This document shows positions 10,238 through 57,319 of a stretch of DNA of 64,000 nt, in pieces. A program made the translations under genes and the position numbers. The DNA is from a virus: positions 37,684-101,683 of the IMG/VR virus record IMGVR_UViG_3300020573_000227. The stretch is one strand, 5' to 3'. The notes beneath the pieces were generated by a model, which was not told the DNA's origin, searched no databases, and saw nothing but the letters and a program-made list of their open reading frames with translations. Numbering within the stretch: the first letter of the stretch is position 1; every line of letters begins with the position of its first letter.

Positions 10238-10266
10238 AAAAAAAGGAGGTTATTACACCTCCTTTT
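10238..10266 (-). terminator. Intrinsic terminator
   Basis: AAAAGGAGGT/ACCTCCTTTT hairpin with T-run. Confidence 0.65.
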
Positions 10267-24018: not shown

Positions 24019-24820
24019 TGGCCGCCTATGGTCGATTAAAATAAACCATGAAAGTGGGATAAAGTGACGAACCTTTGGTTGAGGTAAGTTGCGGTTTCAG
24101 AAATGGAACTCGAGTAGGCAAGTGGAGTATCGTTGAACCTTAAGTACTGAGGGTAACACTTTAGGGAAAGTGGTTTGACGACCAAGCAATCCGAGTTGTT
24201 TGGTTGAGGTGGGAACACCAATAAGAATAATCCATAGAGTTATTACAAGAAGTAGGACCTCCAATCTTACAATTGTGTGATTCAATATGATGGGAATCTT
24301 AAAACCGAAAGGTATGGTGAAGTACGAGTGGTGTCGTTATCATCCTTTATTAGACTCTACCAAGGGTTTAGTACTGAAGGGGTCCAAAAATATGGTGGCA
24401 GGGATGTTACAGAGAGTAGTTTAGTATCGAGTCGTTCAAAAGATGGCTTGGCTGGTCGACGAACCGCTACTTTCCAAATTCGGAAACTAAATTTTGTTAA
24501 TTCAGGTTTAACAACTTAAACATAACAAGAAAAAGTGTTCGTCAGTCGTTGTAGACAGGTGGCTACATAGTCGTGAGGGGTTCACGGCCACAAAGGGTCT
24601 CAAGCCCGATGTGATTTTTAAAAAAGTTCTCTAGACCCGCAAGGTTGAATCAGGGAGGCATCTTTGATGAGTAATGAGTATTAAAAGAGTATATAACGAC
24701 TCAAGGATTGGTTAATCTAATTGACCGCCGCTGATTGGTACTACTCAAAAGGTAGTGGAAAGGGGAAGAATCAAATAATGTCCCTAAGTCAATTATTAAG
24801 ACATGTATTCTCAGTGTTTT
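24019..24820 (+). ncRNA. Large (~800 nt) structured ncRNA, GOLLD-like
   Basis: No credible ORF, GC above background, many hairpins and GNRA loops, own TATATTTG promoter and boxA-like site, next to a phage tRNA array; family inferred from size and context. Confidence 0.6.
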
Positions 24821-26688: not shown

Positions 26689-27084
26689 GGGGATGTTTGG
26701 TATTGATTTCAGGTATCAGGGATAAATGGCACGTAGTCAGAATTCATCTATGACTTAAATCCACGGTGAAGCAATTTAAGCGGCAACGTTTATAACAACA
26801 TGGAAGTAGCAGGTATTCTTGCAACTTCTAACGTAGCAGTAGCCTAAGGCGAAACTACAATCGGGTCGATGTACATATAACCTGGGAACAGAAGTACTTA
26901 AGGTGGAACACTACCCAAAAGTGTTGGAGCAAATTTGGTGGCTCTTGAAAATCCAGTCAGAAACGGTATTGTAGGTTTCCCGTAATTAACTTACTATTTG
27001 TCAATTGAGAACCGATTGAATAAACGTGTAGTCATTTATTGTTGAACAGGAAAGACACGGGTTCGACTCCCGTCATCTCCACCA
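26689..27084 (+). ncRNA. ssrA: tmRNA
   Basis: GGGGATG...CATCTCCACCA with G3-U70, T arm ACGGG-TTCGACT-CCCGT; tag ORF 26782-26847 GNVYNNMEVAGILATSNVAVA*. Confidence 0.92.
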
Positions 27085-27085
27085 T

Positions 27086-27110
27086 AAACCCATCTTCGGA
27101 TGGGTTTTTT
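27086..27110 (+). terminator. tmRNA terminator
   Basis: AAACCCATC-TTCG-GATGGGTTT + T-run. Confidence 0.8.
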
Positions 27111-27122
27111 GTTTGGGACTTC

Positions 27123-27225
27123 TATAAACGAACAAAAGGTCCGAAGACCCTTTGTCGAGATTTAGAACACCTCCTTTTCGTTTTATAAGTTTTATCGTTT
27201 AATGGCGACCAAACCAATTAAACTC
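27123..27225 (-). ncRNA. Candidate small RNA B with extended SD (complement of 16S 3' end), no ORF
   Basis: TATTTATA box 27229-27236; 5' hairpin; AAAGGAGGTGTTC; C-UUCG-G hairpin whose G-U pair forms only on the - strand. Confidence 0.65.
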
Positions 27226-27239
27226 TCTTATAAATATCT

Positions 27240-28286
27240 TTATAATAGAGAATGTAAGTTTTTTAGTACAATATTTTTAATAATATTTTCTTGTAGTTTT
27301 TTTGTTCCGTCGGCGTTGTACGATTGTAAAAATTCACTTTGGGGTACCCAAGTTCCTCCATTCTTATATCCGTCAAAAACAAATGGATTACCACCATCAT
27401 CTATTTCTATTTTACCATGATTTACAGGTAATTGACTTTTTTGTGCGTCTAACTGAGCTTGTAGAAATTCGGGACTATCGTCACCCATTCCCGTGTATTC
27501 AGATTTTTTTGTTGTTAACGAAGGATCAGATAACTTGGCCCAAGTAAGAGGTCCCACCACACCATCATCTTTTAAACCATTTGCTGATTGAAAATCTTTG
27601 ACCATTTTTTTAGTTCTTCCACCAAAAATCTTATCTACCTTACCATCTTTACTAATTTCTTTATGTCCATTACTGATAAGTAATTCTTGAATTTTACCAA
27701 CGATATCACCTTTCATTCCTAACTTAACAATTCCACCATTTTTTAAATCTTCTGGTGTTAATGTTGTCGAAACTAATTTTGATTCATCTTTTTTAGGTGT
27801 TTGATTTTTTAATGTCGCATTTTTTACCGAATCTAATTCCAAAAACAGTCTATTATTTTGAAGACATTTGTAGTTACCCTTTTCTCCTTTATGTTTTCCC
27901 CCTAAAACCATAAAACGAGTGGACTTGGCAAAAAGTTGAACAAGTGGCGTATCCCAAACAGTTGTTTTATAAACAATAACGTCTATACCTTTTGGTGTTT
28001 TTACGACTTTACCCTTTTTTGATGCACATGGTGGAAAATCATTATTTGTTGGTTGATTTGGGTTAGGTGTTGGATTTAGTACTGGATTTGATACTGGATT
28101 TGGTTTAGAATTGGGTAAATTAAAATCTACTAAGTTCTCATATTCCGGAAACTTCTTCAAAAATTTTATTGTTAAATCTATATCAGATAAATCATCATAA
28201 GAACTTGGATATTTTTTTCTAACCCTTGATGCAAATTCCGATACTGATATTTTTGTGGAATTTTGTTCCTCTAAAAATTTTTCCAT
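27240..28286 (-). CDS. Peptidoglycan-binding domain protein (possible virion protein)
   Basis: VKLGMKGDIVGKIQELL...DKIFGGRTKKMVKDFQSANGLKDDGVVGPLTW. Confidence 0.75.
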   Translation of the reverse strand: MEKFLEEQNSTKISVSEFASRVRKKYPSSYDDLSDIDLTIKFLKKFPEYENLVDFNLPNSKPNPVSNPVLNPTPNPNQPTNNDFPPCASKKGKVVKTPKGIDVIVYKTTVWDTPLVQLFAKSTRFMVLGGKHKGEKGNYKCLQNNRLFLELDSVKNATLKNQTPKKDESKLVSTTLTPEDLKNGGIVKLGMKGDIVGKIQELLISNGHKEISKDGKVDKIFGGRTKKMVKDFQSANGLKDDGVVGPLTWAKLSDPSLTTKKSEYTGMGDDSPEFLQAQLDAQKSQLPVNHGKIEIDDGGNPFVFDGYKNGGTWVPQSEFLQSYNADGTKKLQENIIKNIVLKNLHSLL

Positions 28287-30264: not shown

Positions 30265-30345
30265 AACTTATAAATATCTAAAAAAAACTTTGAAATTGAT
30301 TGTGATATACTAAAAAATACCTATTTTTGTCAAAAATATAAAGAC

Positions 30346-37376: not shown

Positions 37377-37724
37377 ATGTCTAAAATATACCAACCAATT
37401 ATAATTGAAAGAGTAGATGAAATGATTGAGATTTTGACTGAAACAAATTTCTTCTCAGACTATGATTTAGAGAGTACCGATTTTGCTAAAACTTATTTAT
37501 TGGATAAATTAACCGAAAAATTCATATCGGGTGAATATGACATGGAAGAAGATGAATTTTTTGATGAGGAAGAGTTTGAAACGGTTCTTAGAGAAATTGT
37601 TGCCGGTTCTATTCTTTATGACTTAAAGAAAAAGGGATTTGTTGAGTCGTATGATGATGAAATTACTGAAGAATTGTTTTTTTTAACTGAAAAGGGAAAA
37701 AAGTTATTAAAAAAGGATAAATAA
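37377..37724 (+). CDS. Acidic hypothetical protein (possible winged-helix tail)
   Basis: LYDLKKKGFVE...FFLTEKGK. Confidence 0.65.
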   Translation: MSKIYQPIIIERVDEMIEILTETNFFSDYDLESTDFAKTYLLDKLTEKFISGEYDMEEDEFFDEEEFETVLREIVAGSILYDLKKKGFVESYDDEITEELFFLTEKGKKLLKKDK

Positions 37725-45592: not shown

Positions 45593-45675
45593 AATTCTTC
45601 CTTTGTTTTAAGTCTTTATTTAATAATAAATACCAGTTATCCTTTATAAAGTATTTATATAAAAGATAAATTTTA

Positions 45676-56101: not shown

Positions 56102-56898
56102 AAAGAGCAATAGTAACAGGTTCGAAAGGTTTTATAGGTAAAAATTTAATTCAAGAAATCAAAGATGATTTTGAAATTTTAGAAATTAATGAAGACATTT
56201 TTCTTAATGAAGATTGGACAAATGTTTTGTTAAATAAAATAAACAAATTTTCACCTGATGTTATTTTTCATATCGGAGCATGTTCGGACACTTTAGAACA
56301 AGATGTGAATTACATGATGACCAGAAATTATGAATCAACAAAGATAATGTCAGATTATTGTTATGTCTATAATTGTAAAATGATATATTCTTCTTCAGCC
56401 GCAAATTACGGTACCAATAATTTATATCCATCAAATCTTTATGGGTGGAGTAAATACGTTGCCGAAAAATACGTAATTCAAAATGGTGGAGTTGCTTTGA
56501 GATATTTTAACGTTTATGGACCATACGAAGACCATAAAGGGAAGATGTCGTCGGTTGCGTATCAAATGGTCACTAAGCAAAAAGAAGGTCAGGAAATCAA
56601 ACTATTCCCCCTAAAACCGACGAGAGATTTTGTGTACGTGAAAGACGTTATTAGTGCTAACCTTCACGCACTTAAAAATTATACAGAATGCTCATCTAAT
56701 TATTATGAAGTTGGCAGTGGTGAATCAAGACCATTTGAAGATGTTCTTGAGATTTTGAATATCGGTTTTACGTATCACAAAGAAACTGACATTCCTAAAG
56801 GGTATCAATTCTTTACTAAAAGTGATAAACAAAAATGGATGAAGGGGTGGGAACCTAAATATAATTTAGAAATGGGGTTAAGGGATTATCTACTTTAA
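56098..56898 (+). CDS. hldD: ADP-L-glycero-D-manno-heptose 6-epimerase
   Basis: TGSKGFIG, GACSDT, YSSSAA.YG, YGWSK, LRYFNVYGP.E.HKGKMSS, RDFVYV. Confidence 0.85.
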   Translation: MKRAIVTGSKGFIGKNLIQEIKDDFEILEINEDIFLNEDWTNVLLNKINKFSPDVIFHIGACSDTLEQDVNYMMTRNYESTKIMSDYCYVYNCKMIYSSSAANYGTNNLYPSNLYGWSKYVAEKYVIQNGGVALRYFNVYGPYEDHKGKMSSVAYQMVTKQKEGQEIKLFPLKPTRDFVYVKDVISANLHALKNYTECSSNYYEVGSGESRPFEDVLEILNIGFTYHKETDIPKGYQFFTKSDKQKWMKGWEPKYNLEMGLRDYLL

Positions 56899-57132
56899 GA
56901 ATCGTCCCTTAACGTCCACGTATTTTTCCATAATGAAACCGTCCTGATTATCGTGTTTCATTTTTAACATTAGATTACCCTCAAAATCTTTGAACATACC
57001 GATATAACCGGTTCCTTCACAAGATACGTTATTTGAATCTCCCGGTAACATACCCGCAGACACCTCCTTAACTTCAAATACATACTCTAAATCAGAATTG
57101 GTCCACTCAATAAATTCTTTTGAGTATCCCAT
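56890..57132 (-). CDS. Small hypothetical protein
   Basis: Start moved to ATG 57132, directly after the upstream stop. Confidence 0.55.
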   Translation of the reverse strand: MGYSKEFIEWTNSDLEYVFEVKEVSAGMLPGDSNNVSCEGTGYIGMFKDFEGNLMLKMKHDNQDGFIMEKYVDVKGRFLK

Positions 57133-57133
57133 A

Positions 57134-57319
57134 TTAGACCTCCTCGGTATATAAAATAAATTTACTTCCGTCTGGATGAGGTCTTTCGGGATCTTCTTCG
57201 TCGTAAAAAACTTGGTTTTCTGCCAACCAATCCTCGCACTCATCTAATGTTGTGAAATGTTCTGTTCCTAATACAGGTACATCTTTACCCGCCTCGAAAA
57301 TTTTGTAAGTCATTGCCAT
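57134..57319 (-). CDS. Small acidic protein (paralog of 57425)
   Basis: PVLGTEHFTTLDECEDWLAENQ. Confidence 0.7.
   Translation of the reverse strand: MAMTYKIFEAGKDVPVLGTEHFTTLDECEDWLAENQVFYDEEDPERPHPDGSKFILYTEEV

Follow-up and report, generated by a model that had tools for sequence, protein, structure and literature searches.

A conserved, structured, noncoding RNA with an invariant Shine-Dalgarno tract in the RNA island of freshwater jumbo phages

Results

Genetic context of the RNA B locus

The window analyzed here, meaning the whole 64,000-nucleotide stretch of viral DNA (positions 37,684 to 101,683 of IMG/VR record IMGVR_UViG_3300020573_000227), is part of a jumbo phage genome whose closest IMG/VR relative, the 316-kb G001, is 95% identical. 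The window encodes seven tRNAs, a GOLLD RNA, and a tmRNA. The locus that we call RNA B (27122-27228, - strand) sits between the 3' end of the tmRNA and the stop codon of the convergent gene 27240-28286 (- strand), the product of which has a peptidoglycan-binding domain. From the letters of the DNA, a late RNA without an open reading frame (ORF) had been predicted here, binding 30S subunits through the anti-Shine-Dalgarno (anti-SD) sequence. The features of the locus and its RNA neighbors are as follows.

24412-24817, + strand: GOLLD RNA (Rfam)
26689-27084, + strand: phage tmRNA gene, convergent neighbor of RNA B (ARAGORN; Rfam RF00023 at 82.8 bits)
27086-27107, no strand assigned: hairpin common to the RNA B region and the convergent tmRNA gene; strong as a + strand terminator but weak as a - strand one, with the terminator scan calling the + strand only
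27122-27132, - strand: 3' strand of P2 (27131-27127) and 3' tail; P2 is kept in all sequences
27133-27154, - strand: P3 hairpin, with a 9-bp stem, UUCG loop, and U-rich 3' side; 6 of 9 pairs changed on both sides
27157-27161, - strand: AUCUC, invariant in 73 sequences; its AUC lies 6-9 nt after GGAGG, at the place of a start codon
27165-27182, - strand: 5' strand of P2 (27182-27178), continued by the SD tract (27177-27165); GGAGGU invariant in 73 of 73 sequences
27183-27196, - strand: A/U-rich linker whose sequence and length differ among the 75 distinct sequences
27197-27223, - strand: P1, the 5' hairpin, with a 10-bp stem, one bulge, and a conserved loop; 4 of 10 pairs changed on both sides, 99.9% of cells paired
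27229-27238, - strand: promoter-like box GATATTTATA, preceding the first helix by 5-7 nt; invariant in 11 relatives of one alignment

The layout described in the original prediction was borne out. ORF 27240-28286 ends at 27240 and the TATTTATA box (27236-27229) follows directly; the 5' hairpin is present at 27223-27197, the helix formed by 27182-27178 with 27131-27127 closes the 3' domain, and the C-UUCG-G hairpin lies at 27154-27133, where its G-U pair would be A-C on the + strand.

Several observations bear on the identity of the phage. The nearest cultured relatives of the neighboring phosphoesterase are from Flavobacterium phages, and the phosphoesterase is all that the cultured Flavobacterium phage immuto has in common with the window. 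A search with the protein flanking RNA B found nothing beyond the close relative G001. Since G001 has a bS21 homologue, the window phage fits the bS21-encoding freshwater Bacteroidetes phages, of sizes up to 331 kb, described in PMC9723584, a report with no mention of RNA B or of tmRNA. The phage that carries RNA B is best explained as a member of a bS21-encoding jumbo-phage lineage of Flavobacterium-like Bacteroidota. A phage bS21 gene was found in four of five viral records with RNA B, the fifth being a fragment that is about 12% complete; as this co-occurrence falls within one lineage, it counts as a single evolutionary observation. The bS21 gene is located elsewhere than RNA B, and the initiation regions of the lineage's phage bS21 genes have no SD.

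RNA B is a structured RNA family

When viral contigs were scanned for the 13-nt complement of the 16S tail together with the hairpin loop, 36 loci were obtained, and the clustering of their match lengths at 36-37 nt indicated that these loci represent families and not chance matches. The SD was left out of the pattern in two further searches, namely, a second viral-contig scan anchored on the P1 loop and a metagenome scan using the P1 loop and the 5' strand of P2; the latter yielded at least 118 stretches, mostly from lake metagenomes. A covariance model, R1, built from 11 members, matched 91 sites, of which 75 were distinct. Members of the family thus came from at least 118 metagenome contigs plus about 20 viral ones, with 75 distinct sequences. 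RNA B was single copy in three near-complete phage genomes of 234-336 kb; no copy was found among GenBank phage records, and it was not found in 151 sampled Flavobacteriales genomes. In an Rfam 15 scan of the window at the gathering score, only the tRNAs, tmRNA, and GOLLD were recovered, and RNA B matched no family. A permissive Rfam scan of 27080-27260 gave matches far below threshold, mostly over the tmRNA terminator hairpin outside RNA B. Our literature searches likewise found no description of it. Judged by these sequence comparisons, RNA B is a previously undescribed structured RNA family.

The structure is supported by covariation. In the alignment of 75 sequences, 10 of the 29 pairs had changed on both sides, a count reached by none of 500 shuffles; the alignment was fitted to the model and such counts are biased accordingly, but the compensatory swaps are still obvious in the raw rows. 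These pairs were located in P1 (four) and P3 (six). Paired cells made up 99.6% of the alignment, compared with 33-56% when the 3' partners were slid. One P2 pair is G-C in 51 sequences and G-U in 20. The loop of P3 varies within the family (UUCG, CUAAA, UCUAAAG, or GUAA), and this hairpin is probably RNA B's own terminator. AUCUC can pair with GAGGU (27173-27169) in a weak 5-bp hairpin, P2a, both sides of which are invariant in 73 sequences, so that covariation is not informative there.

The strand could also be assigned. The - strand folded better than shuffled sequences (z = -4.2), with z = -3.0 for the + strand. G-U pairs are frequent, in P1 as elsewhere, and would be A-C mismatches if read on the + strand, indicating that the RNA is the SD-bearing, - strand of the window. 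G001 is identical to the window across 27123-27313 and, having no differences there, is uninformative on conservation; in the family, conservation of RNA B is far above that of the flanking coding DNA. RNA-level covariation, the G-U pairs, and the distribution of indels together ruled out RNA B as a chance, coding, CreT-like, or attachment-site feature.

RNA B has no open reading frame and follows a candidate promoter

The original prediction held that no ATG follows the SD, and this was true of the window and of 73 relatives. More generally, no ATG, GTG, or TTG begins 4-13 nt after GGAGG in the window RNA or in any of the 73 variants. The GTG-TTC-TAA said to overlap the SD is present in the window but is not conserved. 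Among relatives, 1- to 2-nt indels are found in the linker, 3' of the SD, within P3, and beyond it; these break a 31-amino-acid frame starting at TTG and any frame from the invariant AUC, and no open frame is conserved. The frame-breaking indels and the lack of a start codon indicate that RNA B contains no ORF.

The core box, TATTTATA, has 26 copies in the window, and at about 19 of these the ATG of an ORF follows 3-18 nt later. Examples are at 30276, 29278, 63786, and 62595 (- strand) and at 45652 and 48673 (+ strand); this spacing implies that a phage-specific promoter is in use and that the mRNAs have little or no leader. Upstream of RNA B, a decamer with TATTTATA as its 3' end precedes P1 by 5-7 nt and does not vary, and genes inserted downstream of RNA B in relatives each have their own copy just before the ATG. 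The position of the box before many ATGs, including those of inserted genes, therefore suggests that it acts as a promoter of the phage, giving transcripts whose leaders are very short. The genes of the window that carry the box have no assignable function, and the late timing originally proposed for the RNA was not supported. With a promoter-like box, a 5' hairpin, an invariant tract, and a terminator-like 3' hairpin, the predicted organization of RNA B is that of trans-acting small RNAs (sRNAs). The family, its structure, and its indels agree in supporting an ORF-less RNA gene on the - strand with a promoter-like box, as had been predicted.

RNA B is linked to a convergent tmRNA gene

Context was assessed at the 70 family loci with at least 550 nt of flank. 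A convergent tmRNA gene lay downstream of RNA B in 50 of the 70 by ARAGORN, usually 30-90 nt away, and the Rfam tmRNA model added 10 loci, all convergent, raising the count to at least 60 of 70. The conserved downstream module consists of the tmRNA, a small membrane protein, the phosphoesterase, and GOLLD, and the upstream gene varies among relatives. In L158, L180, and L176, an SmpB-like ORF lies between RNA B and the tmRNA gene. This ORF is directly 3' of the phage tmRNA, giving these phages a complete trans-translation pair. In L017, the ORF inserted between the two RNA genes looks, from its translation, like a GIY-YIG homing endonuclease.

GOLLD RNA (Rfam, 282-327 bits) was observed in the same RNA island as tmRNA and RNA B across relatives, including L071, L229, L176, and L205. 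The tmRNA gene of the window encodes its 3' CCA (27082-27084), which is absent from the 95%-identical L001 through a substitution and an extra base.

An origin of RNA B by capture of a host ssrA-rpsU fragment was considered and rejected: ssrA does lie beside rpsU in two Flavobacteriales genomes, but the genes are divergent and an alternative SD is present. In these genomes (L426 and L432), ssrA is about 250-280 nt from the divergently transcribed rpsU, the leader of which carries an alternative SD matching an alternative anti-SD.

Conservation in RNA B is strongest in the SD tract

The 13-nt complement of the 16S tail claimed in the original prediction is exact at 27177-27165 (- strand) and unique in the window, where about 0.001 matches would be expected from composition. 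With two mismatches allowed, there were 5 matches, compared with 1.7 expected. The assumed 3' end of Bacteroidota 16S rRNA was verified in three Flavobacteriales genomes (L402, L407, and L408), all of which have GGAAC before ACCUCCUUUCU, immediately behind the conserved 3' portion of the 16S gene.

Across the family, the tract reads AAAGGAGGU plus a tenth base that is either G (39 variants) or A (34 variants), followed by UU and by a final C or U. Only 21 of the 73 variants have the complete 13-mer, so the claim held for the window but not for the family, in which the conserved uninterrupted complement is 9-10 nt. In the 34 variants with A, an A-C mismatch breaks the 16S helix after 9 bp, which counts against a decoy function. 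The UU opposite the AA that is specific to Bacteroidota 16S tails is retained, and the base before it is not. Retention of the motif in relatives, which had been proposed as a test, was clear: GGAGGU is present in all 73 variants although the anchors used in the searches did not include it. Of all parts of RNA B, the SD tract shows the strongest conservation.

The predicted duplex between the window RNA and the verified 16S tail has an energy of -23.2 kcal/mol. For the 73 variants of the family, values range from -14.1 to -23.2 kcal/mol, with a median of -20.5 kcal/mol. Among the Flavobacteriales rpsU regions sampled, 33 of 54 have an extended SD, and these gave -17.6 to -22.1 kcal/mol. By its predicted pairing, RNA B is comparable to rpsU-type regions, for which at least 9 consecutive bp with the 16S tail at about -14 to -21 kcal/mol served as the yardstick. 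A scan of genome contigs for the 13-mer followed by ATG returned chance matches and not rpsU.

The stems of RNA B vary by compensation, whereas GGAGGU and AUCUC never vary. This points to a trans-acting partner of invariant sequence, for which the 16S tail is the obvious candidate. Two observations fit this less well. In the single-sequence fold, the probability that GAGGU is unpaired is about 0.01, so that P2a may occlude the tract, which again counts against a decoy; and the invariant AUCUCG and P1 loop are not accounted for by 16S pairing.

RNA B resembles the host rpsU initiation region and differs from other known systems

Ribosomes of Bacteroidia hold the anti-SD in a pocket formed by bS21, bS18, and bS6 and ignore SDs (PMC7797042, PMC9976891, PMC13000453). 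The single Flavobacteriales gene with a 9- to 13-bp SD is rpsU, and ribosomes free of bS21 start on it faster, resulting in autoregulation (PMC9976891, PMC13000453). The authors of this work ask whether bS21 phages encode factors aiding bS21 exchange (PMC9976891, PMC13000453) and speculate that the host rpsU loop is a counterdefense (PMC7797042, PMC9976891, PMC13000453).

RNA B shares with the host rpsU region an extended SD of 9-13 bp with 16S nucleotides 1532-1544, of similar energy (PMC9976891), and in four host regions (L434, L470, L465, and L454) the bases just 5' of the SD are the same. Because the 16S complement forces most of the common bases, homology between RNA B and the host rpsU leader cannot be demonstrated. 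The rpsU region has a start codon about 9-10 nt beyond its SD core, followed by the bS21 ORF; RNA B has neither, is phage encoded and set in a three-helix fold, and was not found in the 151 sampled genomes of the host order. The link to bS21-deficient ribosomes made in the original prediction receives indirect support from the pairing energy in the rpsU range, the SD-less bS21 of the lineage, and the published finding that, in Flavobacterium, such SDs are used by bS21-free ribosomes only (PMC9976891).

The nearest analogues of RNA B, being small and having an unusually long SD, are rreB and rreR of Alphaproteobacteria. These are small mRNAs with a 16- to 17-nt SD that cosediment with 30S subunits and are poorly translated; they have a GTG start and a conserved ORF of 14-18 amino acids and are cellular genes in SD-using hosts (PMC5711450). 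The complement in RNA B is 9-10 nt, 13 at most, and not 16 or more; it has neither start nor ORF, and it would act in a host whose ribosomes normally ignore SDs. 6S RNA, which targets RNA polymerase, and CsrB/RsmZ, which target CsrA, are stable noncoding RNAs that titrate a machine by ligand mimicry. The decoy concept is similar, without any sequence or structural relation, but RNA B has a single site and its putative target is the ribosomal anti-SD tail. CreT requires a start codon and a mini-ORF of rare codons, and STAB-SD elements are located in the 5' untranslated region (UTR) of a long mRNA, which they stabilize. Like RNA B, both put a strong SD to a use that is not ordinary protein synthesis; RNA B, however, has no start or mini-ORF and is not in the 5' UTR of a long mRNA. 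The CreT-like toxin entertained in the original prediction is not supported, as RNA B has no start codon and no mini-ORF.

Other SD-like sites were observed. A group of unrelated phages of about 32.5 kb (L012, L018, L019, L029, L555, and about 25 other viral contigs) carries a 15-nt complement of the Bacteroidota 16S tail that begins inside the TAG stop of a gene whose product has an SSB-like end. The complement is followed by a small self-hairpin and a terminator, and no ORF follows. No bS21 was found to be encoded by this group, and no cultured relative was found. An ORF-less 15-nt SD in phages without bS21 implies that an SD decoy need not be tied to phage bS21. Within the window, a terminator hairpin between two - strand genes (10242-10265) has an SD-like 9- to 11-mer and its anti-SD-like complement as arms and reads similarly on both strands. 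The second strongest gene-proximal match in the window is a 10-nt SD at 57060-57069 (- strand). An in-frame ATG 8 nt further on would yield a 53-amino-acid product inside ORF 56890-57243; this may be a phage gene read by ribosomes with an exposed tail.

Discussion

The observation behind the original prediction, an ORF-less RNA presenting an SD, has been confirmed, and its interpretation is partly supported. We tentatively favor the reading that RNA B, itself without an ORF, mimics the rpsU initiation region and captures ribosomes with a free anti-SD. A more specific proposal, on which we place somewhat less weight, is that by mimicking the rpsU region RNA B seizes the anti-SD of bS21-free ribosomes, disables the SD feedback loop, and so aids takeover by phage bS21. 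Transcription, ribosome binding, and a physiological effect of RNA B are what we infer from the comparisons above. According to this proposal, an RNA of about 100 nt would start just after the phage box, with P1 followed by an A-rich linker and then by a 3' domain that P2 closes. This domain would show an SD of rpsU grade in front of the stable, terminator-like P3, with no start codon and no ORF. RNA B could then pair with a 16S tail that is outside the bS21/bS18/bS6 pocket, as in bS21-free or assembling 30S subunits or 70S ribosomes, and with no start codon and a hairpin just 3' of the SD, the resulting complex would be a dead end. It would compete with rpsU mRNA, the only host message with such an SD, blunting the autoregulatory rebound of host bS21 and holding the tail out of the pocket. 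Either effect would favor loading of the SD-less phage bS21 or, more generally, divert the pool of bS21-free ribosomes. In an alternative form of the proposal, the RNA would keep the tail out of the pocket while phage bS21 loads.

The tight linkage to tmRNA and SmpB is not accounted for by a decoy, and this keeps alive a different explanation, namely, that RNA B is a protein-binding or scaffold RNA of a phage trans-translation module, for example, one modulating rescue, whose SD tract is read by a protein and not by rRNA. The convergent tmRNA at most loci, the SmpB-like ORF between both genes in L158, L180, and L176, and the conserved downstream module beside variable upstream genes would all fit. 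However, we saw no complementarity to tmRNA in the window sequence and identified no candidate binding protein, and the linkage may merely reflect clustering of stable RNAs (tRNAs, GOLLD, and tmRNA) with a common terminator; we consider such a role unlikely. Slightly more plausible, but still improbable in our judgment, is a conventional base-pairing sRNA whose purine-rich seed targets an RNA other than 16S, such as RNA A or a CCU-rich phage or host mRNA, the SD likeness being incidental. The architecture is typical of trans-acting sRNAs, and a possible partner is present in the window. RNA A (4096-4212, + strand), which is encoded downstream of a Clp-ATPase-like gene (2049-4067), is ORF-less and has the same kind of promoter box; it contains two anti-SD-like pyrimidine tracts and has two hairpins on its 3' side as well as a strong terminator. 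It is itself conserved (76 viral contigs, 47 distinct sequences), and two blocks of about 11 bp are complementary between RNA A and RNA B in all nine genomes holding both; such pairing would explain the invariant bases just 5' of the SD. Yet the match scores 46.5 against best scores of 38.5-47 for shuffled queries and is not above chance. Both sides are invariant and do not covary in the nine genome pairs, a third block is lost, and the invariant AGGU part is left unpaired by RNA A. No other complementary target was found in the window except the self-paired terminator at 10242-10265. Five fragment contigs with a variant RNA A had no RNA B. Pairing between the two RNAs is no more than possible.

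RNA B might also act only in cis, as the 3' UTR or terminator of the upstream operon or as an insulator, with an SD tract that stabilizes the mRNA or stalls or recycles ribosomes. It does directly follow the stop of 27240-28286, a gene without a box of its own, and the unrelated 32.5-kb phages have their 15-nt SD and terminator in the equivalent place after the SSB-like gene. What makes this doubtful is that the upstream gene changes among relatives while the RNA is kept together with its own box, that the box matches those before about 19 genes, and that conservation far exceeds that of the flanking coding DNA; we regard a purely cis-acting element as quite unlikely. Least probable by far is a cryptic tiny gene or CreT-like toxin translated from a noncanonical start such as the invariant AUC. 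The AUC is suitably placed after GGAGG in every member, but a canonical start is absent from all 73 variants, 1- to 2-nt indels within and after P3 shift the frame between relatives, no stop or peptide is conserved, and neither rare-codon repeats nor a CRISPR or antitoxin partner is present.

If the proposed capture of the anti-SD is correct, RNA B would be the first RNA that targets the ribosomal anti-SD as a decoy or exchange factor and the first known viral use of the otherwise "blind" anti-SD of Bacteroidia. It is a widespread and strongly conserved candidate for the factor that gets phage bS21 into host ribosomes. Whatever its mechanism, RNA B is a new structured family in the RNA island of tRNAs, GOLLD, and tmRNA of freshwater jumbo phages, where it marks the phage tmRNA locus.
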